From: a virus
Taxonomy: Duplodnaviria > Caudoviricetes
Length of the DNA: 64,000 bases
IMG/VR virus record: IMGVR_UViG_3300037400_002261
Location: 32,001 to 96,000 of that record
Reading direction: 5' to 3' (one strand)
Shown here: one piece after another, positions 1-30,292 of the stretch
Layout: every line of letters starts with the position of its first letter
Numbering within the stretch: position 1 is the stretch's first letter
Program-made: the position numbers and the translations under genes
The notes under the pieces: generated by a model
Told to the model about the DNA's origin: nothing
Seen by the model: the letters and a program-made list of their open reading frames with translations, nothing else
The model's database searches: none

Positions 1-1122
1 TATCTATGTGGTATTCGCAACCCCCACAATTCAGCAAATAATATTGGTTATTTTAAAAATGTTCACCATCCATTAATGGAAGAATATTTTGAATTTAGTA
101 ATAATATAATGGCTGTCAATTGTATCCATACTGATATACAGTCACGTATGAATGGCGAAGATTTTGATTCAGATTTTAATTTTGTTACAAATCAACCGCA
201 GATGGTTGAAGCTGCCAGAATAGCTTATAGAGATTATCCTACTGTTGTTAATGAAGTTGGCGAAAGCGGTTTATCATATAATAACACAATGTCTGAATAT
301 GCGAGAATGGACTCAAATATGCAGAGTGCGCAGAAAGCTATAGGTGGAGCAAGTGATACTGCTCAGTTGTCTCAAAGTTATTATTGGTCTAAGGTTGATA
401 AAAAAGAATTTGATGATGATTGTAAGCAATATTATGAGAATACTGTAATACTGGCTGTTGCAGCTCAGTTGGCAATAGATGGATGTAAGAGAGTTTATGA
501 GGTTGATGTTAACGATGATATTGCCAGAATAAGATCTCAGCCGTGTATGAAAAAAGCGAATGATTATCCGAATTTTATGAGGTGGACTCATGAGATTCCA
601 GTTACTAAAAATGGTAAAGAAAGACCTCAAGAGGATATTGCTAAAGATAAGGATAGAGTTAAAAGAAGAATAGATGAAAGTATTGTATGTCCTATGAACT
701 GGTTACAAAACTGTTTAGATAAAATACAAGGTTCTGAAAAAAAAGATATCGTAGATACTCAAAAATATTTTATCAATTTTCCAGGATGGGCTAATAATCG
801 GCAAATGTCCAAGATACGTCAGTTGATTGAAGATTATGATGGTTATACAAAAAGAATTATGTTATTAATGAAAGATGATAATGATAATGATGATTATATT
901 AATTTGTTAGGATTAAAAACGGAAGAAGTTCTATCTGAATTAAAAAAATATAAATTATCAAAATATACAATGAATAGATTAATAGGTAGTGTATTAGGAA
1001 TTGATTTAGGTGTTGGTAATCAATATAAATATCACCAATCTTCAAAGTATGTAAGAAAGACTTTAAATTTAATGTATCGAACTAACAGAGAATTATTCTT
1101 ACAAAATTTTATTAAAGCTTAA
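1..1122 (+). CDS. yonO: YonO-like single-subunit (two-barrel, RdRP-like) DNA-dependent RNA polymerase, C-terminal part (5'-truncated by window)
   Basis: Frame is open from base 1 (YLCGIRNPHN...). Contains RNPH and the catalytic-type RMNGEDFDSD (DxDxD) motif. Lies directly upstream of HU, as yonO-yonN in SPbeta. No in-frame TAG; ends TAA. Confidence 0.8.
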   Translation, partial: YLCGIRNPHNSANNIGYFKNVHHPLMEEYFEFSNNIMAVNCIHTDIQSRMNGEDFDSDFNFVTNQPQMVEAARIAYRDYPTVVNEVGESGLSYNNTMSEYARMDSNMQSAQKAIGGASDTAQLSQSYYWSKVDKKEFDDDCKQYYENTVILAVAAQLAIDGCKRVYEVDVNDDIARIRSQPCMKKANDYPNFMRWTHEIPVTKNGKERPQEDIAKDKDRVKRRIDESIVCPMNWLQNCLDKIQGSEKKDIVDTQKYFINFPGWANNRQMSKIRQLIEDYDGYTKRIMLLMKDDNDNDDYINLLGLKTEEVLSELKKYKLSKYTMNRLIGSVLGIDLGVGNQYKYHQSSKYVRKTLNLMYRTNRELFLQNFIKA

Positions 1123-1381
1123 AATACTTAAGGGTATATGATTTGAATTTATTATTTTTCAATAAATGCTTGCATTTTCGTATTTTTATTAAATTCTTTT
1201 ATATGAGGGAAAAGCGATATTTTCTTATCTACCGCTATTGCCGAGTGCGGTATAAATAAATATGGGTTCATGAATAAAAGCTAATAATACCTTTGGATGT
1301 GGGTTTAGGTTAAACATCTATTGCGCAATTTCTATATAAAAAATTATTAAACTATTACTTGATTAAAAGGAGAAAAAGGAT

Positions 1382-1654
1382 ATGAAGAAAATTGATTTTA
1401 TTAAGTTATTTGCAGAAAAGGCTAATATTACCCAGAAGGATGCAAGAGAAATTAGTGCAGCTTATTGGGATGCTATTTTTGAAGCTATGAAGGACGAAGA
1501 TGGAGTGTCTCCTGTTCAGGGTGTTAAGTTTGTAACAGTACACAAGGATTCACGTACTGCAAGAAATCCGCTTACTGGAGAATCAATCGTAGTTCCTGAG
1601 AAGGATGTGCCGAAGGTTAAGTTCGGTGCTAGTGTAAAAGATATGTTTAAGTAA
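1382..1654 (+). CDS. hup: HU family DNA-binding protein (YonN-like)
   Basis: MKKIDFIKLFAEKANIT...RTARNPLTGESIVVPEKDVPKVKFG is the HU/IHF signature; AGGAG RBS. Confidence 0.95.
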   Translation: MKKIDFIKLFAEKANITQKDAREISAAYWDAIFEAMKDEDGVSPVQGVKFVTVHKDSRTARNPLTGESIVVPEKDVPKVKFGASVKDMFK

Positions 1655-1756
1655 TTAGGTTGTTTAAGTAATTTGAATATTACTGACTACTCCAACCTCT
1701 CCCCAAACTGGGGTAGTCAGATAATATATTATTCCCAGTATAACTGCTGGGATTAA

Positions 1757-1829
1757 TGAGTATGTGGTGTAATCAGGTAGCACAGGTCATTTGGGATGAT
1801 CAGGAGGCGTTCAAATCGCACATATTCAA
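1757..1829 (+). tRNA. tRNA-Pro(UGG), atypical or possibly degenerate
   Basis: Acceptor TGAGTATG/CATATTCA, D arm GTGT/GCAC, anticodon stem GGTCA/TGATC with loop TT-TGG-GA, T loop TTCAAAT. T stem has only 3 good pairs; no CCA encoded. Confidence 0.65.
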
Positions 1830-1872
1830 CTATCAGTGATGATGCTGATTACAAAACTAAAATACAATTTTT

Positions 1873-1899
1873 AGGAGAGTCTCCCCACTCTCCTTTTTT
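1873..1899 (+). terminator. intrinsic terminator
   Basis: AGGAGAGT-CTCCCC-ACTCTCCT hairpin followed by a T run. Confidence 0.75.
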
Positions 1900-1921
1900 A
1901 TTGTAAATAAATAATAAGGAT

Positions 1922-2119
1922 GTGAAAAAGTTGATTGATATTACAAAAGACGAAATGGAATATCTTGTAAGTAAAGGAAGACTTAATGATATCCATCTTG
2001 CTTCTGCTACCCACAAGTCAGGATATAAAACAAGGTTTGTAACTGAATCTCCAAAAACATTGAAACTTTTGGAAGAGTATAGAAAAAATCAAATTGTCAT
2101 GACTTATGATGGGCGGTGA
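1922..2119 (+). CDS. hypothetical protein
   Basis: 65-aa ORF, GTG start after AAGGA, overlapping the next gene's start region. Confidence 0.7.
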   Translation: MKKLIDITKDEMEYLVSKGRLNDIHLASATHKSGYKTRFVTESPKTLKLLEEYRKNQIVMTYDGR

Positions 2120-2124
2120 ATTGC

Positions 2125-3339
2125 ATGAAGTATTTTCTTGATACAAATGTTTTATTAGAAGATATAAGTTATTATTCTTCTCTTCAATTTTTATTATCTT
2201 CTGAAACATTGATTGAACTTGAGAGAATCAAAACTAATAGAAATAGAACTGAAGATATTCGGGCTGCGGCTCGTAATGCTATAAAATGGCTTGCCGACAA
2301 TCCTAACGGATACGAGGTTATTCAATATTGTGATGCTATATATCACGAACTATGTAAACTTGAAATTGGTTATTCAGATGATGTAACTGATATTAGGATA
2401 TGCGGTTGTGTATGGTTGGCAACAAAATTATATCCAGATGAAGAAATAATATTTGTAACTCACGATCTTAGCTGTAGAAATATAGCTGAGAAAATTTTTA
2501 AATTAAACGTTGAATGGTTTGATAGTAAGGAACAAATATATAAGGGTTATAAAGAAATATCTGGTAATACTGAGTATATTAATGAATATATGGCTAATAT
2601 AGATTTATCAACTTGGTATACTAATGAATATTGTTTAATTAATAATACTGATGATAATACTCATAAAGAAATGAGATTTGATGGTACAATGTTCGTTCCG
2701 CTAAAATTACCACCTTCTAAATATATAAAAGGTAAGAACTCATTACAACGTTGTGCTCTGGATATGTTAAATAATCCATCTATAACCATATGTGCTATTT
2801 TGGGTGGATATGGTTCTGGAAAGACTATGTTAAGTACAAAGTGTGCTTTAATGTCTGTTCAGGAAAAAGGGTGGCAATCAAAAATAATAACCCTTAGAGA
2901 AATAGTTTCTGAGGGAAAAGAAATTGGTTATCTTCCAGGAGAGAAAGACACAAAGATTCTAGATTTCATGTTACCTTTTGCTGATCAGCTTGATGGCGGG
3001 GAATTCGAATTAGAATCTTTAAAACAGCGTGGAGTTATTGAAGCAAATACTCCTTATTTTATTAAAGGTAGAACTTTTAACGAAAGTATCCTGCTTGTCG
3101 ATGAAGCGGAAGATTTAACTGAAAAACAAATTAGATTAATTGGTACGAGGGTCGGACAGAACTCTCGTGTTTTTTATACTGGTGATTATTCGCAAAGTGT
3201 TATTAACCCAACAAAAAATAATGCTTTAACAAAAATGTGTAATGAATTAAAAGGGAATGAAATGTTTGCTTGTATTTATTTGGAAGATGATGTTCGCAGT
3301 GAAACAAGTAAACTTTTTGCAAATTTATTTAAAAAATAA
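2125..3339 (+). CDS. phoH: PIN-domain + PhoH-family ATPase (PhoH2-like)
   Basis: N-terminal YFLDTNVLL PIN motif; Walker A GGYGSGKT; GYLPG, FIKGRTF, LVDEAEDL and TGDYSQ PhoH motifs. Confidence 0.92.
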   Translation: MKYFLDTNVLLEDISYYSSLQFLLSSETLIELERIKTNRNRTEDIRAAARNAIKWLADNPNGYEVIQYCDAIYHELCKLEIGYSDDVTDIRICGCVWLATKLYPDEEIIFVTHDLSCRNIAEKIFKLNVEWFDSKEQIYKGYKEISGNTEYINEYMANIDLSTWYTNEYCLINNTDDNTHKEMRFDGTMFVPLKLPPSKYIKGKNSLQRCALDMLNNPSITICAILGGYGSGKTMLSTKCALMSVQEKGWQSKIITLREIVSEGKEIGYLPGEKDTKILDFMLPFADQLDGGEFELESLKQRGVIEANTPYFIKGRTFNESILLVDEAEDLTEKQIRLIGTRVGQNSRVFYTGDYSQSVINPTKNNALTKMCNELKGNEMFACIYLEDDVRSETSKLFANLFKK

Positions 3340-3362
3340 AAATATAAGGAGAATAAAAGAAT

Positions 3363-3689
3363 ATGGTTATTAGAAGTATTGAAGATAATGCAATTGAAAA
3401 AAACAATGATATTAATGGTAAGGTAGTAAGAAATCCGAGACTTGCTCGTCAGATACTTGCAAAAGGTGGAAAAGATGTATGGCTTTTTGATATTAAGCCA
3501 GATAGAGATAATCCGCAAAAGTCAGTATATATCTTTGAAAATACCGACAAGTTTCAGGAAGTACTTTCTTCTGTTTTAGATGAAAACAGACAGTCTCGCA
3601 AATCTAACGAAGATGACCTTATTCGTAAGATGGAAGAAATGCAGAAGAAACTTGATGAACTTACAAAACTTAACGAAGCAAAGGAGTGA
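3363..3689 (+). CDS. hypothetical protein
   Basis: 108-aa ORF with AGGAG RBS and a C-terminal coiled coil. Confidence 0.8.
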   Translation: MVIRSIEDNAIEKNNDINGKVVRNPRLARQILAKGGKDVWLFDIKPDRDNPQKSVYIFENTDKFQEVLSSVLDENRQSRKSNEDDLIRKMEEMQKKLDELTKLNEAKE

Positions 3690-3695
3690 TTGCGG

Positions 3696-4307
3696 ATGGA
3701 AGAATTTTTAATCTCTAGCAATGGAGATCAGATGTCTATTTATGAAGAAACATATCGTTCTTTTTTAAGTGATAGATGTATTATTTTTTGCGGAGAAATT
3801 GGTGATGGTGTAATTGATGATGCCATTATGTATATCTTAAAATGGAATAAAGAAGATAAAGATCTTCCTATTGAAAAGAGAAAGAAAATCCGCTTATATA
3901 TTAGTTCTGTTGGTGGTTCAACATTTTCTGCTAATATGTTAATAGATGTTATTGCACAAAGTAAGACTCCAGTAATTGGTGTAGCACTTGATCTTGTAGC
4001 ATCAGCAGCTTATCTTTGCTATCTTGCTTGTCATGAGCGTTATGCATTTGAGAATAGTTCATTCCTTCAACACGAGGGAGATCTTTCAATTGGAAATTCT
4101 AGATCGAAATTTAAACAAACAGCTGAGTTCTTTGATATGATGGAAAACCGTTCTAAAGAATTTATTTTGAGTAGAACTAAAATGACAAGTGAATTTTACG
4201 ATTCTGTTTATGAACAGGAATATTGGCTTTATGCTGATAAAGCGCAAGAACTCGGTATTGTTGATAAGATCGTGGGAAAAGATTGTAGTATTGATGAAGT
4301 ATTATAA
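3696..4307 (+). CDS. clpP: ClpP-family serine protease
   Basis: DRCIIF, IRLYISSVGGS, VASAAY (catalytic Ser), FLQHE (His), EYWLYADKAQELGIVDKI. Confidence 0.92.
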   Translation: MEEFLISSNGDQMSIYEETYRSFLSDRCIIFCGEIGDGVIDDAIMYILKWNKEDKDLPIEKRKKIRLYISSVGGSTFSANMLIDVIAQSKTPVIGVALDLVASAAYLCYLACHERYAFENSSFLQHEGDLSIGNSRSKFKQTAEFFDMMENRSKEFILSRTKMTSEFYDSVYEQEYWLYADKAQELGIVDKIVGKDCSIDEVL

Positions 4308-4309
4308 TG

Positions 4310-4339
4310 ATGGAGAGTAATTACTACTCTCCATTTTTT
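4310..4339 (+). terminator. intrinsic terminator
   Basis: ATGGAGAGTA-ATTAC-TACTCTCCAT hairpin plus T run right after the clpP stop. Confidence 0.8.
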
Positions 4340-4356
4340 ATATTGGAGTATAAATA

Positions 4357-4557
4357 ATGACAGATTTTATTTTAGGTAAGATTGATTGTGTAGAAGTATT
4401 AAATGCTATGAAGCAAAATACTTTTAGACCTAGCTTTCAACATTGTTATAACGTAAAACACAGACCAACATATACATTTGTCAATTGTTGTGATGAAAAT
4501 GGGAATATTATAATAAAAAGATTTGATGTAATAAAAGGCGTGTTTGTTGATAACTAA
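4357..4557 (+). CDS. hypothetical protein
   Basis: 66-aa ORF with GGAG RBS. Confidence 0.65.
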   Translation: MTDFILGKIDCVEVLNAMKQNTFRPSFQHCYNVKHRPTYTFVNCCDENGNIIIKRFDVIKGVFVDN

Positions 4558-4585
4558 ATAAATCTTATGGAGGTAAAAGGATTAA

Positions 4586-4903
4586 ATGGAGATAGATAAA
4601 TTAATTGAATTATTAACTGCTAGTCCAGAGATTGCTAATGCAACTATCACTGGGATTTTTAATCAGTATAAACCAATATTATATTTAGTTCTTAATGAAA
4701 TATTTAAGATGTATAGTGATTTGGCATATAATGATGAATACTTTAAAACATCTGCTCATTATACACGTAATAGATTTAATGCGCTTGTTAATGAGGGATT
4801 TACCGAAGATCAGGCAATGGAAATTATGTTGGCTGAAATGAGACAAGTTCGTGAAAGTGCTCAAAGGGTAACTTCTAGAACTTCAACAAGAAATAATAAA
4901 TGA
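4586..4903 (+). CDS. hypothetical protein
   Basis: 105-aa ORF with RBS; GFTEDQAMEI helical motif. Confidence 0.8.
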   Translation: MEIDKLIELLTASPEIANATITGIFNQYKPILYLVLNEIFKMYSDLAYNDEYFKTSAHYTRNRFNALVNEGFTEDQAMEIMLAEMRQVRESAQRVTSRTSTRNNK

Positions 4904-4923
4904 TGAAAAGGAGATAAAAGGAT

Positions 4924-5142
4924 ATGCAGAATTATAAGTATAATAAAGTAACAACTGAAAAATTTAATATTAAAGGCGAACTTTCTGATGATTGCAAAAC
5001 AATCAGATATATTGATGGTGACAAGGAAGAACAGGAAATTTCAGTGGCAAAATGTTTTGAGAAATTTGCTGGTCAGGAAATTGCACTTTCTCTTATGCTT
5101 AAGACAGATGAGGATCTTTCGGACGAATTTGAGGAGGAATAA
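4924..5142 (+). CDS. YonK-like small protein
   Basis: FNIKGEL...FEKFAGQEIALSL resembles SPbeta YonK; same position, before a YonJ-like gene. Confidence 0.6.
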   Translation: MQNYKYNKVTTEKFNIKGELSDDCKTIRYIDGDKEEQEISVAKCFEKFAGQEIALSLMLKTDEDLSDEFEEE

Positions 5143-5145
5143 TCC

Positions 5146-6348
5146 ATGACTCCTGATGAATTAAATAAAAAGCCAGACGAAAGTGAGTTGGCTTATATAT
5201 TACGGATTGGCAGTGCAAAAGCTGCTGGTCTGTTAGATATGACTTGGGCTGAGTTGGCAAATATATTTAATAAAAATTTGAGAGAACCTGGGCAAGAATA
5301 TAACGAGAGTACTTATAGAAAGAAGTTCGCTTCTATTCGTCAGTTTGGCGATGAATTTGGTAATAGTGATGATTACGAAGAATTAAGAAAGCTTAAAGAT
5401 GAAATCTATAAGGAAAAGCGTAAACTATTTGACCAGCGTAGAGAATATAATAAGCTTCTTACATCTGATGCGAGAGCTGAACATCTTACAGAATATATGA
5501 TTGAAGCTGCTAATAATCTTAATAAACAATATCCGTTATTGGATATTTCTGATAAGATAAATGATGGGAAAAAGGAAGCTTTAATATGTTTATCTGATTG
5601 GCATTATGGTATGGAAACTGATAATATTTGGAATAAGTATAATACATGTGTATGCCGTAATCGCATAACAATATTTATTAAATATGCCAAGAAATATCTT
5701 ACTGAACATAATATTAACACTGCGAGAATTATTCTTCTCGGTGATGCAGCCAATGGTGCTATTCATACAACTTGTCGTATAAAGTCAGAGGAGGACACTT
5801 GTGACCAAATTATGCAAGTATCTGAAATATTGGCACAAGTAATTAATGAAATTTCGTCTGTTGTTAACAATGTGATTGTTTATTCTTGTTATGGGAATCA
5901 TCTTAGAAGTGTTCAAAAAAAGGAAGATTCTATTCATTCTGATAACATGGAAAAAATTATTCCGTGGTGGCTTGAGCAACGTCTCAAAGATAATAAAAAA
6001 GTAAAAGTTGAGTATTCTAATTATAAAGAATTTACTTATATGAATATACTTGGAAAGAACATAGTTTGTATTCATGGTGATGAGTTTAATTTTAAAGATA
6101 TTGGACCAACTGTAAACACATTGTTTACTAAACTATTCGGGTGTTCTATTGATTATACAGTTTCTGGAGATAAACATCATCTTGAAGAATATGGTCAGTA
6201 TGGTATAGAGAGTATCCTTGTAAGATCTCTTTGCGGAACTGATGATTATGCTAACGGGAAACATTTATATGATAAGCCTGGGCAAACTATTATTATATTT
6301 AATGATGATTATGGTAGAGAATGTACCTACCATATTCCGTTGGATTAA
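5146..6348 (+). CDS. calcineurin-like metallophosphoesterase (YonJ-like)
   Basis: SDWHYG, LLGD, GNH, HGD and GDKHH motifs with an N-terminal coiled coil; SPbeta synteny. Confidence 0.85.
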   Translation: MTPDELNKKPDESELAYILRIGSAKAAGLLDMTWAELANIFNKNLREPGQEYNESTYRKKFASIRQFGDEFGNSDDYEELRKLKDEIYKEKRKLFDQRREYNKLLTSDARAEHLTEYMIEAANNLNKQYPLLDISDKINDGKKEALICLSDWHYGMETDNIWNKYNTCVCRNRITIFIKYAKKYLTEHNINTARIILLGDAANGAIHTTCRIKSEEDTCDQIMQVSEILAQVINEISSVVNNVIVYSCYGNHLRSVQKKEDSIHSDNMEKIIPWWLEQRLKDNKKVKVEYSNYKEFTYMNILGKNIVCIHGDEFNFKDIGPTVNTLFTKLFGCSIDYTVSGDKHHLEEYGQYGIESILVRSLCGTDDYANGKHLYDKPGQTIIIFNDDYGRECTYHIPLD

Positions 6349-6360
6349 AAGGTGTGAAAT

Positions 6361-6462
6361 ATGAAAGATATAGATTTATATTGTTGTTATTCAATAAAAC
6401 TTAGAAATTATTTAACAAATAATGATTTTAGTAAATATGAATTACCAAATATTAAATTTTAA
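6361..6462 (+). CDS. small hypothetical protein (33 aa), possibly a remnant
   Basis: AGGTG RBS; MKDIDLYCCYSIKLRNYLTNNDFSKYELPNIKF-TAA. Confidence 0.4.
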   Translation: MKDIDLYCCYSIKLRNYLTNNDFSKYELPNIKF

Positions 6463-6475
6463 GGAGAAGATAAAT

Positions 6476-7021
6476 ATGGAAAAGATTAATGTGTTAAGCA
6501 TTGAACATTTAGAAGATATCATGATTGAAAATTTAGAGGAAAATAAATCAGTGTCTTTGGTTTCAGATTTTGAAACTGTTTGGGAAATTGCTATGGATTT
6601 TCATAGGTATGAGGATGTTGAATTTGAGTATGTTGATATCAATACCGACTATGACAAGGAGTATTATCTTACTCTCATGATGGATGATGATAACAATGCT
6701 ACTATGGCAATTGAAAAAGCATTTTGTGAAGAAATTGATAATTATCTTGCCACAGATGGTATTGTATTTATTGAAGATACTGTTGATTATAAATATCTTA
6801 CTGATGTGAAAAATAATAAGCATTTAAAAGATGGCGATTTTACACCTATTATCTTTACATTTGATACAGATGATGAAAAAGATAATAAATGTGATGATTG
6901 TTTGTTTGGAAAAGAAGTTACTGATAGTCAGGTACGATTTTTTGTTCCAGCTTGTATGGATGAATTAGTTAAGGCTATTGATAACTTAATGGATAAATAT
7001 ATTGTGGATAATTATAGATAA
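6476..7021 (+). CDS. acidic hypothetical protein
   Basis: AAGGAG RBS before ATG 6476; last TAG-free gene before the suppressor tRNA. Confidence 0.8.
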   Translation: MEKINVLSIEHLEDIMIENLEENKSVSLVSDFETVWEIAMDFHRYEDVEFEYVDINTDYDKEYYLTLMMDDDNNATMAIEKAFCEEIDNYLATDGIVFIEDTVDYKYLTDVKNNKHLKDGDFTPIIFTFDTDDEKDNKCDDCLFGKEVTDSQVRFFVPACMDELVKAIDNLMDKYIVDNYR

Positions 7022-7066
7022 CTTCCCGTCTCCACTCTCCCACAGGTTATCTATATTATATTTATT

Positions 7067-7096
7067 GCCGCTGACATTTTGTTGGCGGCTTGTTTT
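7067..7096 (+). terminator. terminator-like hairpin immediately 5' of the suppressor tRNA
   Basis: GCCGCTGACA-TTT-TGTTGGCGGC followed by TTGTTTT, ending 2 nt before the tRNA. Confidence 0.6.
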
Positions 7097-7098
7097 AT

Positions 7099-7171
7099 AG
7101 GGGTGTGGTGTAATGGTTCAGCACAGGTGGCTCTAACCCACTTGATCTGGGTTCGAATCCTAGCACCCCCG
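7099..7171 (+). tRNA. amber suppressor tRNA, anticodon CUA, Gln-type
   Basis: Cloverleaf: acceptor AGGGGTG/CACCCCC (A1:C72 mismatch, G2:C71, G3:C70, G73), D arm GTGT/GCAC, anticodon stem GGTGG/CCACT with loop CT-CTA-AC (CTA at 7133-7135), T arm CTGGG-TTCGAAT-CCTAG. Confidence 0.95.
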
Positions 7172-7179
7172 TTATTTAT

Positions 7180-7252
7180 GCTGATGTAGCGCAATAGGCA
7201 GCGCAACTGATTTGTAATCAGTGGGTTGGAAGTTCAATTCTTCTCATCAGCT
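7180..7252 (+). tRNA. tRNA-Thr(UGU)
   Basis: GCTGATG/CATCAGC acceptor; ACTGA-TT-TGT-AA-TCAGT anticodon arm; TTCAATT T loop. Confidence 0.92.
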
Positions 7253-7256
7253 TTAT

Positions 7257-7331
7257 GGGAATATAGCTCAGTTTGGTGGTAGCGAGTGACTGTTAATCAC
7301 TAGGTCGTTGGTTCAAGTCCATCTATTCCCG
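7257..7331 (+). tRNA. tRNA-Asn(GUU)
   Basis: GGGAATA/TATTCCC acceptor, G73; AGTGA-CT-GTT-AA-TCACT anticodon arm; TTCAAGT T loop. Confidence 0.9.
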
Positions 7332-7336
7332 TCATC

Positions 7337-7446
7337 GGAACGGAAACATTTCGGAGTAGCTACCGAGATGTGAGTGCATTACACCTGCAGCACTCTTCCG
7401 TTCTTTTTTATTATGTAATTTGCAGGTGAGAAAGACAGGTGAGAAA
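7337..7446 (+). ncRNA. candidate structured leader RNA (three-way junction + T run + RBS-pairing loop) of the GIY-YIG gene
   Basis: P1 GGAACGGAA/TTCCGTTCT, P2 ACATTTCGG/CCGAGATGT, P3 GAGTGC/GCACTC. P3 loop CACCTGCA is complementary to TGCAGGTG (7421-7428) and to the duplicated CAGGTG RBS. Confidence 0.55.
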
Positions 7447-8581
7447 ATGATTGGAATATATAAAATAACTAATTTAGAGAATGGAAAAATGTATGTTGGT
7501 CAATCTGTTGATATAAATAGAAGATGGAAAAATCATAAAAGGTTATTAAATAATAATAAACATCAAAATAAACATTTGCAGAGTTCTTGGAATATTTATG
7601 GATCTGAAAAATTTGAATTTTCAATTATTGAGTTATGCAATGAAAATGAATTGGATGAGAAAGAAATATATTGGATAGATAAACTAAGAACTTATCATGG
7701 TTTTCCAGATTGTAATGGATATAATGATGCGCTTGGTGGAAAAGGTGCTTCATGTATTCATCCTGTATTACAATTTAATTTATCTGGTGATTTAATTAAA
7801 AAATGGTAGAATGCTCTATATGCTGCTAGAGAACTTAATATTGATGCTAGTATCATATATTTATGTATACACAGAAAAATTAAACGGGCTGGAAAATATA
7901 TTTTTTGTTATATTGAGGATTATAATAATTCAGATAGTCTAAAATGGTATTTTGATGATAGAAAAGTCGCTCCAGTATTACAATGTGATTTATTTGGAAA
8001 TATTATTAATAAATGGGATACTTGTCAAATAGCTAAATCTGAATTGGGGTATAATCCTATTAGATCTAGAGAAAATAATACTTTGGTTTCTCATGGATAT
8101 ATCTATATTTATGAAGATGATTATAATCAATTGACTGATGAATATTTACAATATATTCGTAGTGCATATAATAAAGTAAAGGTAAAAAAAAGTTATTCAA
8201 TTAGATCAGAATGGAGTTATTGTTCAATCATTTGATTCTATGCATGATGCAGCCAGAAATGGCTTTCATATTAGAATGGTGAGAGAATGCTGTCAACATA
8301 AGCGAAATACATTAAAAGGATTTGTGTTTTGTTATGATGATGAAATAGATAATTATACTCCAGAAAAATGTTATGAATTATGTAATTCTAGAAGAAAAAA
8401 TAATCGTGGGAAAAAAATTATTCAAATTGATAAAGATAATACAATTGTAAAAATTTATGATAAATTATCTGATGTTTTAGTTGATGGTTTTAATATGAGT
8501 AATGTAAGTGATTGCTGTAATGGTTTAGTTGATAACTATAAAGGATATAAATGGATTTATGAAAAGGATGGTGCTATATGA
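7447..8581 (+). pseudogene. free-standing GIY-YIG homing endonuclease with NUMOD1-like repeats; one TAG (Gln) and a frameshift at an A8 run
   Basis: MIGIYKITNLENGKMYVGQS is the GIY-YIG motif. Reads through TAG 7807. At A8 (8184-8191) the repeat VIQLDQNGVIVQSFDSMHDAA continues in the +1 frame to TGA 8581. Confidence 0.8.
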
Positions 8582-9624
8582 TAAGATTAAGACCAGCACT
8601 TACAGAAGAAGAAGTGAGAAAAACTGGCGTTGCATAGATAAGGCAGGAATATAATAAATTAGCCAAAGATTATAATCGTATAATTAATGGGGATGTATAT
8701 TTATGTCAAAAATGTAACGAATTTCACAGTGTTGATGCTTTCTATAGTGATAAAAAATATGCAAGTGGTTTATTCCCTATATGTAAAAAATGTTTAATAG
8801 GTATGGCTTGTGACTATGATAAAAAAACAAATCAATATACTGATAATCGTGAAAAGACAATGAAGGTTTTGGAAATGATGGATTTGCCATATATTGATTC
8901 TATGTATCAATCCGCTCTTACTTCTTGTGCGGAAGATGTTCAAGACAAACATCGGAATACTGCATGGTCACATTATATTACTGTTATTAAATCTCTTCCA
9001 AATTGGCGTGGTAAAGGATGGGCAGATTCAGAATTACCATCAGATCAATTTGAGGAAGAAGTAAAAATAAATAATAAAACTCTTAAAAACGCAGTTAAAA
9101 GATTTGGACCAGGTTACACAAATGAAGATTATATGTTTCTTGAAAATGAATATCAAGATTGGATAACAAGATATGAGTGTAATACAAAGGCTCAAGAAGC
9201 TGCATTCGAAAGATTGAGTTTTAAAAAGTGGGAAATTAATAATGCTACCAAGAAAGGTCTTCCAACCAAGGATTTGGATAAGACTTATCAAGAATGGCTA
9301 GGTACTGCTAACATACAACCAAGGCAGACAAGTATGGATGCTACTGCTGATGCTCAAACGTTTGGAACATTAATTCAAAAATATGAAGAAACTAGACCTC
9401 TTCCAGAAATTGATCCCGACTTGGAAGATGTTGATAAGATAGGCTTGCTGATTGATGTGTTTTTCCGTGGACACGCAAGCAAGATGTTAGGATTAAAAAA
9501 CACGTTTTCGCATTTATATGAAAGATTTATGAAAAAATATACAGTAAACAAACCAGAATATGATGAGGATACTGATAGCGAAACTGTTTTTGAAAAAGTA
9601 TTTGGTAGTATGGAGGATGATTAA
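8578..9624 (+). CDS. terS: probable terminase small subunit (YonG-like, Zn finger); TAG=Gln
   Basis: ATGA overlap start; one TAG at codon 20; CQKC...CKKC zinc finger; directly upstream of terL with TAATG coupling. Confidence 0.7.
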
Positions 9625-11390
9625 TGCCACCAAAAAATAAAAAGACATTAGCAGATGTTCAGAAAGAAAAGTCTGAGCGTTTAATGGACGGGATCGCATA
9701 TTGGGCAGCTTTCTATAGAAAGAATGCTCATAGATTTGTAAATGATTTTTTAAATATTAAGCTGAAAACATTTTAGAAAATTTTAGTGTACATGATGATG
9801 GTTAGCACTAATTTTCTATATATTGCAAGCCGTGGTTCTGGTAAGACTTGGCTTACAGCTTTATATTGTGTAGTCCGTTGTATTTTATATCCAGGCACAA
9901 AGATTTGTGTTGCATCTGGTGTAAAATCATAGGCTGTTGAAGTAATTACGAAAATTGATACAGACTTCTTGAAAAATTATTCATGGGGTTCTTAGAATTT
10001 AAGAAATGAAATAGAATATATATCAACGAGTGTTAATAATGCTCGTGTAGATTTTAAGAATGGTTCTTGGATTACTGTTGTTACTAGTAATGATAATGCT
10101 CGTCATAATCGTGCGAATATTGTTGTTGTAGATGAATTTAGGATGGTTGATTTAAATGTGATCAATACTGTATTGAGAAAATTCTTAACAACATCAAGAA
10201 TGCCTGGATATTTAAGTAAACCAGAGTATGCTCACTTACAAGAGCGTAACTCTGAAATATATATGAGTTCAGCTTTTTATCAAAGTCATTGGAGTTTTGA
10301 TAAGACAAAATCATATTTTGCAAATATGTTGGATGATAAAAGGCGATATTTTTGTTGTAGCCTACCTTATTAGCTTGCTATTAAAGAGGGATTATTATCT
10401 CGTGAACAAGTTGAAGATGAAATGAGTGAGGCAGATTTTGATCCTATTGCATTCTCTATGGAGATGGGTGCTGAATTTTATGGAGATTCTGATGGGGCAT
10501 TTTTCAGATATGATGATATATCTAAATGCAGAAAAATAAAAACTCCATATTATCCTATTGATTTTTATGATAAGCGTGGTATCAATGTACCAGAATTAGC
10601 AATAGGGGAAAGAAGAATATTGTCGGTTGACGTAGCTCTTATGGCATCAAGAAAACATAATAATGACGCTGCTGCTATCACAATTAATGTAGCATTACCG
10701 AATAGTGATACTTCTTATATAAGTAATATTGTATATGTTGAAACATTTGAGGGATTAACAACAGATGAATTAGGACTTACTATAATGAGATATTTTTACC
10801 ATTATAAATGTACTGATTTAGTTCTGGATAGTTCTGGCAATGGTTTAGGTGTTTATGATGTTATTATTAAAGAAACATATGATCCATAGCTTGGTATAAC
10901 GTATGATGCGTTATGCGCATGTAATGATGATAATATGGCAAGTCGTTGTAAAGTTAAAAATGCAAGAAAATGTGTTTGGTGTATTAAAGCATCTGCGGAT
11001 TTTAACTCAAATGCTGCTACTGCTTTGAGGGCTGGTTTTAAAAATGGAAATATTAATCTTCTTGTTTCAGAATTTGATGCCGAGGAAATTATAAAAAAGA
11101 CAAAAGGATATTCTAAGTTATCTGCCAAAGAATAGGCTACATTAAGTTTGCCATATTTATAGACAAGTCTTTTGATTAATGAAATGATAAATTTGGAACA
11201 TGAGATAAATAATAACAAGGTAAAATTAAAAGAGCGGTCAGGAATGAGAAAGGATAGATTCAGTTCTATTGAATATAATTATTGGATTGCACAAGAACTT
11301 GGTTTAAAACTTAGACCTAAACAATCATCTAATGATTTATTAAAATATATATCTATTACTCCACCTTGCCGTTCAAAAACTTATGATTAA
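9624..11390 (+). CDS. terL: terminase large subunit (588 aa); TAG=Gln
   Basis: One frame across 7 TAGs. LKTF[TAG]KIL Q-motif, Walker A ASRGSGKT, Walker B VVVDEF, nuclease motifs SVDVA, LVLDSSG and RKDRFSS. Confidence 0.95.
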
Positions 11391-11409: not shown

Positions 11410-13002
11410 ATGCCCAGAAAACCTAAAGCGCAAGAGGCGCTTACTGATAGTCGTGAAGGTGTTATGAGCCAACAACTTGTTCCAAAAAAGAAAAAGGATG
11501 AAGTTGAGGTTATAAATAGACCTACGGCTTTAGATTTTGAAAAAACCAAAAAACTGAAAGAGTTGATTTTGTAGGATGTTTCCAGAGGTAGGACGCAGAC
11601 TGCAATGCAATATACAAAAAGTTTGGTTTCTACTTATTTATAGAATCCATATAACTTCAGAAGTTAGATAATTGGTGTATCCAGATTTTTATGGAGAGTT
11701 AGTGCGATTTATCGTAAGATAATTTTTTATTATGCTACAATGCCTAAATATAATTATTGTATTGTTGAAAGACCAGAATTTACAAAAACTCCTAATGTTA
11801 AAAAAATGTTGAATGATTATGAGACAGTTCTTCGCAGAGTACATCAATTTAATTTTAAAGAAGAATTTGCCACTGCTATTGCTCTTGCAATACGTGATGG
11901 TTCATATGTTGGTTATATGTATGATAATGAAAATGAAGGGTCTTTTCTTCATATGCTACCAGTGGAGTATTATAAAATACGTGGTAAGAATGAAGCTGGA
12001 CAATGGGTGGTATTTTTTGATGCTACATATTTTGCAGTTGGTCAGAATAGAATATTTGTAGAAGGTATTGATGGTGACACTTCTGGGTGTTGGGCAGATG
12101 AGTTTATACAAGGATGGAAAGATTATAATTCTAACAGGGATTTAAGATGGTTTATGTTAGATCCATCTAAGACTATAACTCTTCTTGGTGGACTTCAAGA
12201 TGAATTTGATAATCCATTACCTTTTTTTACTGGGTTGTTTCCGTCTATTCTTAATATGTTATCTGCTGAAGAACTGGTAGCTGATAGAACAGAATTAGAC
12301 AACTTCTATCTTCTTCTGTTAAAGATTGATACTTTTGATGAAAATACTGTTGATGATTTTGAAGTAAGCCTTGAATTGGCTAATGCTTATAAAGATGCTC
12401 TTGAGGGTATTATGCCGAAATTAAGTGGCGTAGGTCTGGCTCCAGGTATGGTGCCTGAACTTATTACGTTTAATAAGGCTAATTCAACTAATGACGAAAG
12501 TATTGTTCAGGAAAATATAAATAATATTTTTGCTCAATCTGGAGCAAGTCAAACAGTTGTTTCTTCTGGAGATTCACAAAGTGCATTGAGTATTAAATAT
12601 TCGCTAATTAATGATTTTAGCTATGTTGCTCTTCTTCTTTCTCGCCTTGAAAAAAATTATCAATATTATATTGATAAAAATATTTCCGAGAATACTATTT
12701 TCACCATTCATCATCAAACACATTATAATGAAGATGAATATCTTGAAAAGTTAAAAACTTCAGCGACTCTTGGTGGTTCTGCCATGAAGTATGGCACAGC
12801 AATGAATATGACACCATATGAATTTTATTGCACTATAAAATTTGAGTCTGCAATTGGTTTAAAATCTATGATGGAGCCTCTTGAGTCTAGTTATCAAAAG
12901 TCAGCGAATGATAATGATGATGCAGGTAGACCAAGGGCTTCTGATGATGAGATATCTGGAAGCGCAGAGAGAACGAGAAATATAGTTGATGATAATGTAT
13001 AA
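11410..13002 (+). CDS. portal protein (YonE-like, 530 aa); TAG=Gln
   Basis: AGGAGG RBS; 3 TAGs in the first 90 codons; follows terL; acidic C-terminus with the GRP motif typical of portals. Confidence 0.85.
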
Positions 13003-13572: not shown

Positions 13573-14748
13573 ATGGCTTATAATAAAGAAACTGGAATGT
13601 ATGAAGGGTTTATATATAAAATAACAAATAATATTAATGGTCATTTTTATATTGGACAAACTCGTACAACTGTTGAAGAAAGATTTTATAATCATACAAA
13701 AGATTATTCAATAAGTAAATATCAAAAATACGGTTTATACAAAGCTTTTAAAAAGTATGGCGTTGATAATTTTAGTGTTGATACAATAGAAACTCATCAA
13801 GCATTTACACTTACAGAATTAAATAATATATTAAATGAAAGGGAAATGTTGTTAATAGCAGAAAATCGTAATATATATGGTAAAGATTTTTTATATAATC
13901 ATTCTCGTGGTGGGGACTATGATGGTTGTGCAACTGAAAATATACCTGTGATACAATATAATTATATAGGTGAAGAAATTAATAGATTTGATTCTATTGT
14001 TGATGCTAAAAGAATCACTGGGGTTTCTGGTATTAGTGGAGTTATTAATAAAAAACCATAGAATTTATCTTCTGGTGGATATATTTGGAGAAAACAAAAT
14101 GATCCTTTGACAAATGAAGAAATTCGTTTTATTATGATTCATTTTAATACAATGCCGATTAGATAGTATGGATATAATAATACATTTATTAAACAATATG
14201 ATTCAGTTAAAGAAGCTTCTGAATCTATTGCCAATGATAGATACAATAATAATGATATTGTATCACATATAAAAATGTGTTGTGAACATAAAAGTAAAAC
14301 GGCATACGGATATATATGGAGATATGAATTTGATAATTCTTTTGATGATGTAGATTATAAAAACTGTCAATTTGCAATTGAACAAAGAGAAAACGGCACT
14401 GGTAAATTACTTAATACGTTTATCTCTACTATAGAAGCAGAAAAAATAACTGGTGTTGATGATAGTATTATTTCACAATGTTGTAATCATAATTTAGATT
14501 CAGCGGGTGGTTATTTGTGGAATAAAGTAGGGGATTATAATCCGAATATTCTTAAAACTATAACAATTAAACCAGTTGTTCAATTATCAAAACAAGGTGA
14601 ATATATAGCCACTTACGATTCTCCGACTTGTGCTCAAAATGCAACTGGTATTTATTCTAAAAGTATTAGCAGAGTATGTAGAGGCTTTTTAAAATCTACT
14701 GGTGGATATAATTGGCAATATTTATATGATTATTTAAAAATATTATAA
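13573..14748 (+). CDS. free-standing GIY-YIG homing endonuclease with NUMOD1-like repeats (391 aa); TAG=Gln
   Basis: GFIYKITNNINGHFYIGQT; repeats PVIQY, PIR[TAG]Y and PVVQL with GGYxW ends; 2 TAGs join the track fragments. Confidence 0.9.
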
Positions 14749-21490: not shown

Positions 21491-22264
21491 GTGCAGTTTG
21501 ACCGTTTAAAGATGTATTTTGGAGAACCATTTGATGTTGGTAATGGCATGAAAATATTAACTCCAACTGTTGGTGATATTCTAGAACTCCCAAATTCTGA
21601 TATAACTTTTTATCAGACACTTTATATATGGGTTGCAAACCCAACTACATATAGATTAATGCTTTGGGAAAATGGAATAGACTGGAATAAAATATCTAAT
21701 TATGAGTTGTTTTTGATGATATATAAATCCGAGAATCCAGTAGTTAGTAAAATGATTTTTGGAGATGTTGATTTTCAAGGATTTTAGTTATACACAAAAA
21801 CAATTCCAGATAAAGATGAAGATGGAAATGATATAGAAAAAACTGAAGTGACATTATATAATCCAGAAATTGATATTGAGATATCAAAAGATCATTATAA
21901 TTTAATTTCAGAATATTTGAAGGCAGCATTCAATATATATCCAAAAGTAGAATTGGTAAGAGGTAAATCTGCTAAAGAATGGATAATTGACGAAGAAAGA
22001 CAAGCATTAAACAATAAGAAAGATGATGAAAATCATTCTACTCTTCTTCCTCTTGTTTCTAGCTGTATAAATCATCCTGGATTTAAATATAATCTTTAGG
22101 AACTAAAAAATGTCAATTTTGTTTAGTTTATGGATAGTGTTCAAAGATTGCAAATATATGAAAATAGTACTGCTTTATTAAAAGGATCTATGAGTGGATT
22201 CGTTGATACTTCCAAGATAGATAAGGATGAATTTAATTTTATGAGAGAAATATCTCATAAATGA
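21491..22264 (+). CDS. hypothetical tail-module protein; TAG=Gln
   Basis: 257 aa across 3 TAGs (FV[TAG]FMDSVQRLQ); GTG start is uncertain. Confidence 0.75.
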
Positions 22265-22328
22265 AACTGTATTTAAGCCCATAATTGGCTTTTATATTAA
22301 AAAAATATTATGAAAGGAGAAAAATATT

Positions 22329-23105
22329 ATGGCATTTAAGTTAGATGATATTATTATTGATCGTATTTAGATGGCAATTGCTACTGATACTAATGATACT
22401 GAAATGTACTATGTTCTGACACAGCTTTCTGAGGCTAATATTGAGATTACTGCGGAGTCTAAAGAAGCTCGTGACAAAGACGGGACACTGATTAAAAAGT
22501 TCTGGACGGGTAAGAGTGGTACGTTTACGGCTACTAATGCAATGATTAATCTGAATGTTATTGGTGAAGCTTCTGGTTCTAAGAAACAGGCTCTTGCTGC
22601 TTCAGATCTTTTCCCAGCAATTAAGACTGGTAAGCCTGGTGAAGTTGTTGCAACTCCTTATCTGAGCGAAGGTACTCTTAAGGTTCACGTAATTGGTAAT
22701 AATGGTACTATGGGTGATAATGTTACCTCTAAAGCTACTGCTACTGGTTATGGCACAGAAGGTGCAACTGTAACACTTCCGCAGGATATTGAAGGTGCAA
22801 CGAAGTTCGTTATGGAATATCAGAGAACTAATCCTAGCGCAGTTGTTATTAGAAATCAGGCCGACAAATTCCCTGGAACTGTTCGTCTTGTTATGAAGGT
22901 TCTGGCTATTGAGCCTTGCTCTCCTGATAAACTTCGTGCTGGTTATCTTGTTCTTCCGTCCTTCCAGGTTAGTCCTGAAGTAAATGTTTCTCTGACTACT
23001 GATGCTACCCTTGATTATACTGGTGACCTTCAGGTTAATTATTGTGGTACTGAAAAGACTCTGTATGAGTTCTATTGGGCAGAGGATGATATTGAGGAAG
23101 AGTAA
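22329..23105 (+). CDS. major tail (tube) protein; TAG=Gln
   Basis: AAAGGAG RBS; one TAG at codon 14; Thr/Gly-rich, biased codons, followed by a strong terminator. Confidence 0.8.
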
Positions 23106-24659: not shown

Positions 24660-25664
24660 ATGGCTCGTAGCCGAGGAGTTTACAACAGAATTTATAGTGA
24701 CGAAAAATGGTTATAGGTTAATCCTGAAAATAAAGCCATAATGGATGACTTCCTCACAGAGTTGCGACAATAGAAAAAAAGTCCAAATACTATTGAAGCA
24801 TATAGACATGATTTAAAATTAATATTTATAAAAATTCTTGAAGACTTTAATAATAAGTCAGTTTTAGAAATGACAAAGAAAGATTTTCGCCGTTTAAATA
24901 TTTGGTTTGATGATTCTGGAATGTCTCCAGCGAGATGTAATAGGCTTCACTCTTCTATCAATTCAATGTTAACATTTTGCGAAGAAGATGATGATTATGA
25001 TTATGAAGTTAATTATAGTAAGAAAGTGCGTGGAGTTCCTAACGAAAAAGTAAAAACAAATGATGATGATTTCTTCTTTACATTTGATGAATTTATTAAA
25101 ACAAGGAATATTCTTGTAGAACAAGGTAGATTGTAGGATGCTGTGTTATGGTCTTTAATGTATGATTCTGGTGCGAGACGTAATGAAGTATATCAAGTAA
25201 AGAAACAAGGTCTTCTTGATGGTAACAAAACAAATATTGTTAGAGGTAAACGTGGAAAACAATTTCCACTTATTTATTTAAATGATACGAAAGAACTTAT
25301 TCGCCAATATCTTGAATGGCGTGGTGATGATGGAATTGATTCATTATGGATTAAAGGACATGGAGAAACTGCTTCTGAGATTGATTGTTCTACATTATAT
25401 GATCGTATTGTAAGTATTAGTAAAATACTTTCTGAGGTTCGTGGTGAAGAAGTTAATATTTTTCCGCATAGTTGCCGCCATAGTAGATTGCAAGCATTAA
25501 AAAAGGGATGGGATGACCGTCTTAAGGATGATGGAGGGAAAAATAAAGTATTTGAATTAGATCAAATATAGGCATTTGCACATCATTCAGATTTAACAAC
25601 TACTTCTGGGTATCTTAAAGATGAAACTGAAGACAAAATAAATGAAATGTTTGGAATTTCATAA
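24660..25664 (+). CDS. tyrosine recombinase (YomM-like, 334 aa); TAG=Gln
   Basis: SGARRNE (R), VRGKRGK (K), PHSCRHSR (HxxR), I[TAG]AFAHHSDLTTTSGY (H and catalytic Y); 4 TAGs. Confidence 0.92.
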
Positions 25665-25678: not shown

Positions 25679-26650
25679 ATGAAACGTGGAATAAAATTGA
25701 TGATTGTATTAATGTTATTGATGTTGATATCTCCTGTTTGTGAAGCAAAAATTGTAATTAACAAGCAACCTAAATCTTAGTATTCTCGTATTTCTGGAGA
25801 AGTAACTTTTACTGTTGAAGCAACTGGTAAAAATTTAAAGTATCAATGGTATGTTAGTAAAGATAAAAAGAAGACTTGGAATAAGATTAAATATCAAACA
25901 TCTAGATCTATCATTATTAGATGTAAAAAATCAAATAGAGGATATTATTATCGTTGTCGTATGGTGGACACATCTGGTAGATATAAAACAACTAAACCAG
26001 TGCGAGTATATGTTACAGATATTGGTAAGAAATATTCATACTTAATTGATAAGAAAAGAGCTAAAAACCTTTTCTATCCGAAAGCTGCTGATGGTTATTG
26101 TTATGTGTATTGTCATGATAGAACCTATGAGCAGCAAGTGATTGATGCTATAAATATCATTAATAAAAAAATTGGAACTACTTTTATATATACAAAAACG
26201 GGATGTATAGCAGATATTATCATATTCAACTTTTATGATTATTATGTGGAAGATAATATTTGGTTTAGAGAATTAGAGAGATATTATATTTACATGGAAG
26301 GTTATGATTTAGCTGGAATTACTTTTAATGATGAAGGGATTCATTATCTTGTTGGATTAAACAGCAGTTATTTTGACTATATTATGGATGATGCAATTCG
26401 TGGAGTAATTATACACGAACTAGGACATTGTATTGGAGTTGCACATTCAAATAATAGAAATGATATTATGTATTATATAAGTAAATTTAATGATAAGATG
26501 TCAAAAAATGATATTAAAATGTTTAAAAAACAAAGAACAAAAATTAAGAATATTGGTTCTGTTAATGTTGTTTCTAAAAAATCTGGTATAACAGATAGTA
26601 TTAGAAAAAGATGTTTGGATAATTATTAGAACTAGATTCGAGGTAGATAA
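25679..26650 (+). CDS. secreted Ig-like domain + matrixin (M10/metzincin) Zn metalloprotease; TAG=Gln
   Basis: Signal peptide MKRGIKLMIVLMLLMLISPVCEA; Ig motif KQPKS[TAG]...VTFTVEATG..LKYQWY...YYYRC; HELGHCIGVAH with DIMY Met-turn. Confidence 0.85.
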
Positions 26651-26653
26651 TAT

Positions 26654-27091
26654 ATGGAATATAAATTTATATTGGATTAGGATTTGGTTGATGAATATAA
26701 CAAAATATATTTTAAACAAAATCCTAGAGCCAAAAAACCGTTTTTAACTAAACCTCGTCATCCAACACTTAATGAATGGACAATAATGAAAAGACCATAT
26801 GCTAATGCTCTAAAATAGAAATGGAAAACATTCGGAGTATGGTGGTGTAAAAAATTAGGATATGATGGTTTGATGTTGGAAAAAGTAAAAGTAGATATTA
26901 CTGTATATCAACCACATCACAGGCGTGGAGATATTGATAATTTTTGCACTCAGAAATTTCTTTGGGATGCGTTTACTGAAGCCAGATTTTGGGTAGATGA
27001 TGATTACACTCATGTTACTGAGATTACATCTAGAATGGGTTATGATAAAGATAATCCACGAACTGAAATAATTATTAAAACAGTTGATTAA
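26654..27091 (+). CDS. rusA: RusA-family Holliday junction resolvase; TAG=Gln
   Basis: PTLNEW, RRGDIDNF..KFLWDA....DDD, DKDNPRTEIII; 2 TAGs. Confidence 0.85.
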
Positions 27092-27119
27092 TCTAAATAC
27101 TTCTTTGGAGGTGATTCTA

Positions 27120-27500
27120 TTGGGATATGTATATTATAATCCAAATCCAGCTGGAAAAATGGTTGGAGATTGTGTTATAAGAGCTATTTCAAAAGTAGAA
27201 AACAAATCGTGGGAAGATGTCTTTGTTGAATTAATGACTACTGCATATAGTTTGTCGGACATGCCGTCTTCAAATTATGTAGTAGATTAGTATTTAAAAT
27301 CAAAAGGATTTGTTCATCGTAATCTTCCGAATACTTGTCCTGATTGTTATACGGTTAGAGATTTTGTTAATGAACATTAGGATAAACCGTATATAGTTGC
27401 CACTGGATCTCATATGATTGGTGTAAATAAAAATATATATGATTCGTGGGATTCAAGTGATGAGATTGTAACTTATTATTATGAAAAGGAGGAATCTTAA
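27120..27500 (+). CDS. small papain-fold-like protein (Cys/His/Asp); TAG=Gln
   Basis: GGAGGTG RBS and TTG start; NPNP...GDCVIRAI...GSHMI...YDSWDS; 2 TAGs. Confidence 0.7.
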
Positions 27501-27501
27501 A

Positions 27502-28367: not shown

Positions 28368-28482
28368 TAATTAAAATGCGAACATAATATATTTAATTCT
28401 CCGTATCTGAGAAAAAGGAATAAATGGATAATAACATTATATAACTTTAAATTATTTTTATTCCAATAAGGAGGATATTATT

Positions 28483-29253: not shown

Positions 29254-29268
29254 TTGGAGGTGGTGTAT

Positions 29269-29742: not shown

Positions 29743-29756
29743 GGAGGGAAATGGTA

Positions 29757-30179: not shown

Positions 30180-30228
30180 TAGATATTGAGATGAATTAAA
30201 TATATGGTTCGTATTTTGATTAATATAA

Positions 30229-30259: not shown

Positions 30260-30292
30260 ACGATTTATGATTTTGAAAAGGAGAAAAAGAAT

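Follow-up and report, generated by a model that had tools for sequence, protein, structure and literature searches.

Genetic recoding that is limited to late genes, suppressor transfer RNAs (tRNAs) encoded by the phages themselves, and an imperfect agreement between recoding and the presence of a suppressor have all been described in phages (PMC7886860; 10.1101/2021.08.26.457843), together with an explicit model in which standard-code genes come first, the code-change machinery second and recoded structural and lysis genes last (Yutin, PMC7886860; Borges, 10.1101/2021.08.26.457843, Fig. 6 and Fig. S6). Jade phages have a recoded lysis cassette with a standard-code "code change operon" directly 5' of it (10.1101/2021.08.26.457843), and the Mgcod tool is built on block-wise dual coding (10.1101/2022.06.29.495998). 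In SPbeta, the polymerase YonO transcribes 37 late genes as one operon that starts upstream of yonK, after the HU gene yonN (PMC5467207); the literature on phage recoding that we searched made no link to YonO or SPbeta. Here we describe a 64,000-bp stretch of virus DNA (the window; bases 32001-96000 of the 107,285-bp IMG/VR record IMGVR_UViG_3300037400_002261, which is without end repeats) that carries a YonO-type RNA polymerase (RNAP) gene, a suppressor tRNA with anticodon CUA (tRNA(CUA)) and late genes with in-frame TAG. We judge it moderately probable that this is part of a large SPbeta-like phage of gut or rumen with the known "code 15" late-gene switch, in which the suppressor is made together with the late messenger RNAs (mRNAs) from a generic tRNA slot, at a position that is not conserved.

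Code-15 gut phages (10.1101/2021.08.26.457843; PMC7886860; PMC9523058) share with the present phage TAG read as glutamine only in structural or late genes, standard-compatible upstream genes, a tRNA(CUA) of their own, a low-GC genome and a patchy distribution of the suppressor among close relatives. The present lineage differs in being SPbeta-like, YonO-encoding and of Clostridia, and in having its suppressor in a conserved tRNA slot at the junction of replication/accessory and packaging genes; furthermore, no release factor or glutaminyl- or glutamyl-tRNA synthetase (GlnRS/GluRS)-type gene was found in its record (G000) or in that of its closest complete relative, the 205-kb G001. SPbeta (PMC5467207) has the same gene order from yonV to the tape measure, and its YonO is matched by the present RNAP in profile, motif and fold. 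Unlike the present phage, however, SPbeta uses the standard code, has no tRNA slot and carries structured noncoding RNAs in the yonN-yonK gap (L097:10410-10475), whereas here tRNA-Pro is the first feature after HU, PhoH and ClpP genes are inserted behind it, and tRNAs and recoded late genes follow. Dual-coded crAss-like phages (Yutin 2021; 10.1101/2022.06.29.495998) likewise combine standard and recoded blocks with a two-barrel RNAP of the YonO/QDE-1 type, but theirs is a giant virion protein for early genes, encoded in the recoded part, in phages of Bacteroidetes; the present RNAP is a 905-aa TAG-free enzyme, encoded 5' of the recoded block in phages of Firmicutes.

The original prediction, made from the letters of the window, had the suppressor tRNA sitting exactly at a boundary between TAG-free and recoded genes, and the counts behind it were borne out by our per-gene table. 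The 11 plus-strand genes in window positions 1-7021 contain 66 CAA or CAG codons (about 65 had been counted by hand) and no in-frame TAG, and all stop at TAA or TGA; the first gene after the tRNA(CUA) cluster, at 7420-8235, already uses TAG (7807-7809). The co-orientation that had been noted extends to all genes from record position 25914 onward, which lie on the plus strand. The per-gene survey covers the record only, a fragment with a CheckV completeness of 54%; within it the upstream plus-strand block (record 25914-39021) comprises 15 genes with 120 glutamine codons and 0 TAG. It takes in that 5' part of the RNAP gene which lies outside the window, where TAG at late-gene frequency would have spoken against the predicted boundary. 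After the tRNAs (record 39420 to the end) there are 298 TAGs in 33 of 43 genes, equivalent to 14 per 1000 codons and 30% of glutamine-type codons. At that rate, the probability of finding no TAG among 66 glutamine-type codons is ~4e-11. Frames 2 and 3 of the upstream block hold 16 and 19 TAG per 1000, as common as in late genes, so that the depletion is frame-specific and points to selection on translation rather than to base composition. No called gene, upstream (15) or late (43), ends in TAG.

Reading TAG as a sense codon raised the greedy open reading frame (ORF) coverage of the record from 70% under the standard code to 92%, compared with 75% for TGA and 83% for TAA. Under the standard code late proteins would end at a median of 10% of their length, with stops at codon 50 of 588 in the large terminase (TerL), at codon 54 of 530 in the portal protein and at codon 19 of an 8310-aa ORF. 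The 49 small genes of the minus-strand block (record 1-25338) contain nine in-frame TAGs, several of which adjoin an alternative start or precede the ORF end by a few codons; they have the appearance of normal TAG stops or of ORFs that were merged. For instance, in an early 274-aa ORF (record 21707-22531, minus strand) a TAG lies 10 codons ahead of TAA and is probably a true stop, past which the suppressor would add a short extension. A few further small ORFs of this block are similar. Late genes use glutamine-type codons at 46 per 1000, about double the 23 per 1000 of this early block, and their GC content at third codon positions is lower (0.18 against 0.33).

The identity of the amino acid was read from alignments. 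In TerL, portal and YonG-like alignments that included recoded and non-recoded relatives, glutamine accounted for 35 of ~110 residues in TAG columns, the next most frequent residue being arginine with 8, and across 26 orthologous pairs with G001 the 65 TAGs of the present phage faced glutamine 28 times and TAG 17 times. Codon usage was in agreement: the share of CAG in CAA plus CAG is 0.44 in the TAG-free block and 0.20 in late genes, but the sum of CAG and TAG as a share of all late glutamine-type codons is again 0.44, indicating that TAG took over about two thirds of CAG codons in the packaging, virion and tail genes. These patterns are consistent with gain of TAG from CAG by single C-to-T changes, and the sequence comparisons support TAG being read as glutamine in late genes only.

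The features to which the argument refers are listed below in window coordinates; the four tRNAs are those called by ARAGORN, and all four were confirmed by Infernal.

1..1122 (record 30405-33122), plus strand: 3' part of the gene for the YonO-type single-chain two-barrel RNAP, 905 aa, no TAG.
1382..1654, plus strand: HU-like DNA-binding protein at the SPbeta yonN position (PF00216, E 4e-18; SPbeta gene order).
1757..1830, plus strand: tRNA-Pro(UGG), followed by a terminator-like hairpin at 1873-1894.
2116..3339, plus strand: PIN-PhoH ATPase, TAG-free here, 1-7 TAG in five relatives.
3690..4307, plus strand: ClpP-like protease, TAG-free (PF00574, E 3e-21).
5146..6348, plus strand: YonJ-like exonuclease, TAG-free (phrog_284; YonJ_N Pfam on orthologues).
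6422..7021, plus strand: 199-aa gene with no function assigned, the last TAG-free gene ahead of the tRNA slot.
7067..7089, plus strand: intrinsic-terminator-like hairpin, 10 bp including 6 GC (-15.2 kcal/mol, z -4.4).
7099..7171, plus strand: amber-suppressor tRNA, anticodon CUA, class I, CCA not encoded (Infernal RF00005, 57.5 bits; ARAGORN 7098-7172).
7180..7252, plus strand: tRNA-Thr(UGU).
7256..7333, plus strand: tRNA-Asn(GUU), the commonest slot occupant in relatives.
7337..7404, plus strand: branched hairpin and then a U6 run, at the end of the tRNA cluster (-30.4 kcal/mol, z -5.8).
7420..8235, plus strand: GIY-YIG homing endonuclease, a mobile insert and the first gene with TAG.
8578..9624, plus strand: YonG-like protein, 1 TAG (phrog_3314; YonG_N/C Pfam on orthologues).
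9624..11390, plus strand: TerL at the yonF position, 7 TAGs, 4 of them at glutamine columns of non-recoded relatives.
11410..13002, plus strand: portal protein at the yonE position, 3 TAGs (phrog_2739, E 4e-62).

The RNAP had been predicted to be YonO-like, and this proved correct. The 905-aa protein had no Pfam or PDB sequence match. Residues R538, P540, N583, G584, D586, D588 and D590 are invariant in 35 RNAP sequences (NGxDxDxD and RxPH segments), and its DxDxD (DFDSD) and R-x-P-H segments align to the corresponding segments of YonO. Its AlphaFold2 model (predicted local distance difference test score 87.7) matched RDR2 and QDE-1 in Foldseek at E ~1e-13 and the phage proteins P74 gp62, P32 gp64 and phi14:2 gp66 at E 5e-6 to 2e-5, while the family profile matched SPbeta YonO in hhalign with 98.1% probability (E 1e-13) over 398 columns including the catalytic segment. 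The gene lies between HNH/ParB/YonV-like genes and HU, as yonO precedes yonN in SPbeta. Taken together, profile, motif and modelled fold identify the 905-aa gene as a true homologue, or orthologue, of yonO. The RNAP has more than 1,700 homologues. In G001 its gene (L004:9992-13002) consists of two ORFs of 596 and 308 aa about 290 bp apart, and many database homologues (P0079, P0084, P0088 and others) are ~590 aa long and cover 65% of the query, which suggests a recurrent split or an intervening element.

The kinship extends beyond the polymerase. Pfam families YonV_C, YonJ_N, YonG_N/C, YonD_N and YonB occur in the neighbourhoods of relatives, and the order YonV, ParB, HNH, RNAP, HU, YonJ, YonG, TerL, portal, YonD, tyrosine recombinase, tape measure is that of SPbeta from yonV to yomI; by gene content and order, the phage is SPbeta-like. 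A crAss-like affiliation, which had been the starting hypothesis, was dropped on this synteny. By analogy with YonO, we infer that the 905-aa RNAP transcribes the late genes. The polymerase would probably initiate a single long late transcript right behind the HU gene, which by SPbeta synteny would correspond to a position near 1.9 kb, and this RNA would span the TAG-free PhoH, ClpP and YonJ genes, the tRNA cluster and the recoded genes beyond. A start after HU would place the tRNA cluster and the TAG boundary about 5 kb inside the late operon rather than at the boundary between early and late transcription. The end of the RNAP gene is itself ~6 kb and about ten genes 5' of tRNA(CUA), so that the two are not adjacent. 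Under this arrangement the suppressor would be synthesised along with the mRNAs that need it, and TAG would serve as a translational licence or threshold and not as a separate timed step. The class I tRNA(CUA) observed in the phage would decode TAG, and we infer that a host enzyme charges it with glutamine.

In order to compare the slot and the boundary across the lineage, 11 recoded relatives covering the region were used. For each, the content of the tRNA slot and the TAGs upstream of it are given.

L104 (79% RNAP identity): slot tRNA(CUA); upstream TAG none.
G001 (complete, 205 kb): slot Asn; upstream TAG none.
L105: slot Pro and Asn; upstream TAG none.
L106: slot Asn; PhoH 1 TAG.
L107: slot Asn; PhoH 3 TAG.
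L030: slot Asn; PhoH 6 TAG.
L028: slot Met; PhoH 7 TAG.
L029: slot without tRNA; PhoH 3 TAG.
L031: slot without tRNA; RNAP 1 TAG.
L032: slot Thr; RNAP 1 TAG, also YonV and YonJ.
L019: slot Pro, the contig beginning 148 nt before the slot tRNA, so that the slot is not judgeable; upstream region outside the contig.

The expectation that the boundary would track the suppressor in related phages failed. Only one of the 11 (L104) has a suppressor in the slot, and seven have TAG upstream of it, in PhoH in five and in the RNAP gene in two. Several PhoH TAGs fall at columns where the present phage has glutamine, and the RNAP TAGs of L031 and L032 lie at about codon 50, within the conserved N-terminus. 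The non-recoded L024 holds Met and Asn tRNAs in the slot, which indicates that the tRNA slot predates recoding; tRNA(CUA) would thus occupy an older generic slot between yonH-like and yonG-like genes. In G001 the TAG boundary is at the same junction as in the present phage, but its suppressor is elsewhere: a class II-like tRNA(CUA) with a long variable arm (L013:2436-2722, minus strand) directly after the portal gene, ~4.6 kb 3' of the first recoded gene and also 3' of a TerL gene with 10 TAGs. The anticodon loop of this tRNA is split by a group I intron of ~190-200 nt (RF00028, 43.3 bits, E 2e-9), and L019 has an intact counterpart behind its portal gene (L019:5509-5595). An apparent absence of a suppressor from G001, as returned by ARAGORN, was overturned by this split gene, and because ARAGORN missed it, a lack of tRNA(CUA) in partial relatives is weak evidence. 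In two further relatives no tRNA(CUA) was found over as much as 6 kb downstream of TerL, and the post-portal position of the present window holds no tRNA. In this comparison the TAG boundary keeps to the junction between modules in some phages, is breached by TAG codons in most, and does not track the suppressor; the coincidence of tRNA and first TAG gene appears to be a feature of the sub-lineage formed by the present phage and L104 rather than a conserved architecture.

Other tRNA genes of the lineage also carry insertions. Two adjacent tRNA genes of G001 (L033:806-921 and 925-1050, ~50 bits each) have inserts of 54-59 nt in place of the distal anticodon arm; a GTATC...GATAC hairpin is common to the two inserts, which are too short for group I introns.

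Several observations weigh against the co-transcribed, generic-slot interpretation. The glutamine identity rests on the alignment of TAG with glutamine, and no close host match for tRNA(CUA) was found in the five bacterial genomes compared. Co-transcription of the tRNA with late genes is argued by analogy to SPbeta, the strong terminator-like hairpins that flank the tRNA cluster could make it an independent or gated unit, and further suppressors or code-change genes may lie outside the incomplete record. Additionally, both phages with a suppressor in the slot (the present one and L104) are TAG-free upstream, versus 2 of 9 others (one-sided Fisher p ~0.11, hand-calculated, with related lineages), an association that weakly favours a positional effect but does not amount to evidence.

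Such an effect is the core of a first alternative, a designed cascade in which the position of the suppressor is functional. Here host RNAP would make the TAG-free genes and stop at the 7067-7089 hairpin, only the flap-less YonO-type polymerase would cross it, and late proteins would need both phage RNAP and the new code; we consider this unlikely. The U-run of that hairpin stops within two bases of the first base of tRNA(CUA), and terminator-like hairpins also precede the slot tRNA in G001 and, by eye in the alignment, in L104. There is no room for a promoter between hairpin and tRNA, so that transcription of the tRNA requires read-through or a start at or before the hairpin. A scan for sigma-70-type promoters returned 76 sites versus 72 expected and was uninformative on a tRNA promoter, and a direct-repeat search found no shared intergenic promoter motif. 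The cascade is also favoured by the sharpness of the TAG boundary exactly at the tRNA cluster, by L104, where a slot suppressor coincides with a TAG-free upstream block, and by the code-change operon of Jade phages described above (Borges). YonO is mostly without the conserved domains of multisubunit RNAPs, among which the beta flap, which aids hairpin termination, has been discussed (PMC5467207), and the SPbeta late operon is reported as one transcript (PMC5467207) despite the several stem-loops annotated on its strand that it spans.

Against the cascade, read-through of terminators by YonO is assumed; G001 has the same boundary with its suppressor after the portal gene, 3' of the TAG-rich TerL; ordinary tRNAs fill the slot in most recoded relatives; and TAG occurs in the PhoH and even the RNAP genes of relatives. 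Moreover, the SPbeta counterpart of the YonJ-like exonuclease is within the YonO-dependent late operon (Forrest 2017, PMC5467207), and by synteny the YonJ-like gene just 5' of the tRNA would already be a YonO-dependent late gene. The strict form of the idea, a gate that demands transcription and translation together (AND logic), with the terminator shutting host RNAP out of the suppressor and late genes and only the flap-less YonO-type enzyme reading through, we also regard as doubtful. If it were true, the code change itself would be under control of the phage polymerase, and leaky late transcription in a lysogen would yield truncated peptides only.

The two-step cascade of the original prediction, with polymerase and accessory genes expressed first, the suppressor next and virion proteins last, therefore survives in part: glutamine-coding TAG confined to late genes and a TAG-free RNAP gene agree with it, while by synteny the boundary would lie inside the late operon, with tRNA and late mRNAs then made together. 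The idea of a standard-code set followed by a recoded set is, in addition, already the published model (Borges; Yutin). What is new is a known mechanism in a lineage where the recoding literature searched does not describe it.

A second alternative is that the suppressor serves mainly in conflict with the host or with other elements: reading through the TAG stops of host genes would harm host and defence proteins but leave phage genes, none of which ends in TAG, unaffected, and the late TAG codons would be secondary, as proposed for crAss-like phages by Yutin et al. (PMC7886860). The avoidance of TAG as a stop in all 15 upstream plus-strand and 43 late genes fits this proposal, and since no phage release factor or GlnRS/GluRS-type gene was found, the tRNA would act alone on host machinery. 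Nevertheless, the host damage is only postulated here, the confinement of TAG to late modules is left unexplained, and the share of TAG among late glutamine-type codons together with the early truncation under the standard code indicates that suppression is required by the phage and not just tolerated; we hold a conflict role to be quite improbable.

Finally, a host that translates TAG as an amino acid or provides the suppressor, which would make the phage tRNA redundant and the pattern one of gene origin and not of timing, is very improbable. Several recoded relatives do lack tRNA(CUA) in readable DNA, but a split or atypical tRNA can be overlooked, as the one in G001 was. TAG is absent in frame from 120 upstream glutamine positions though common out of frame, and TAG ends 3 of 23 long ORFs in sampled regions of Lachnospiraceae genomes with non-recoded relatives.

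Those non-recoded relatives comprise ~60 homologous loci (30-53% identity) in bacterial genome contigs, nearly all of Lachnospiraceae and other Clostridia, with the relatives at about 50% identity in Lachnospiraceae genomes. Cultured strains (Eisenbergiella tayi, E. porci and Lachnospiraceae bacterium CE91-St56) are represented among them by large scaffolds and one complete genome. The loci have 0-3 TAG per 1000 codons and no tRNA(CUA) nearby. Late-gene recoding of TAG to glutamine is hereby extended to SPbeta-like, YonO-encoding phages of Clostridia, and because the lineage has cultured standard-code prophage relatives (Eisenbergiella, other Lachnospiraceae) as well as the SPbeta model, the proposal of recoding as a timing device could become experimentally tractable. 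The same comparison limits that proposal: within one lineage the suppressor may lie ahead of the recoded block, within it or elsewhere, and PhoH and even the polymerase gene can acquire TAG, so that gene order alone does not encode a switch.

The origin of tRNA(CUA) was sought among phage and bacterial tRNAs. It is roughly 70% alike, by eye over the tRNA, to its counterpart at the same position in L104. None of 16 phage tRNAs was a clear parent, the best reaching 68% in global alignment; its 5' part matches the phage tRNA-Pro at 80%, and the likeness ends there. BLAST against five bacterial genomes with related prophages gave short chance-level matches only, an exact pattern of anticodon plus T-arm had 0 matches in viral contigs, and no close tRNA-Gln match was found among the phage tRNAs compared.

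Several further observations concern the recoded block. Two GIY-YIG paralogues (7420-8235 and 13573-14748) both carry in-frame TAG; for the first, no gene was called at this place in most relatives, and the standard code would yield its catalytic domain only. A tyrosine recombinase with 4 in-frame TAGs (window 24660-25664) lies amid virion genes like SPbeta yomM, and at 91% identity to that of G001 it is the most conserved protein of the pair (typical values 55-80%). Its interpretation as a lysogeny integrase was rejected, as the YomM counterpart sits inside the late operon, and the gene consequently has no bearing on the published idea of standard-code integrases. The 8310-aa ORF mentioned above is a single frame (window 31815-56747) with 164 in-frame TAGs at the tape-measure position, where SPbeta yomI encodes 2285 aa. 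The capsid region of one recoded relative contains a group I intron (L108:13069-13414, 71.9 bits) that adjoins a GIY-YIG/NUMOD gene.

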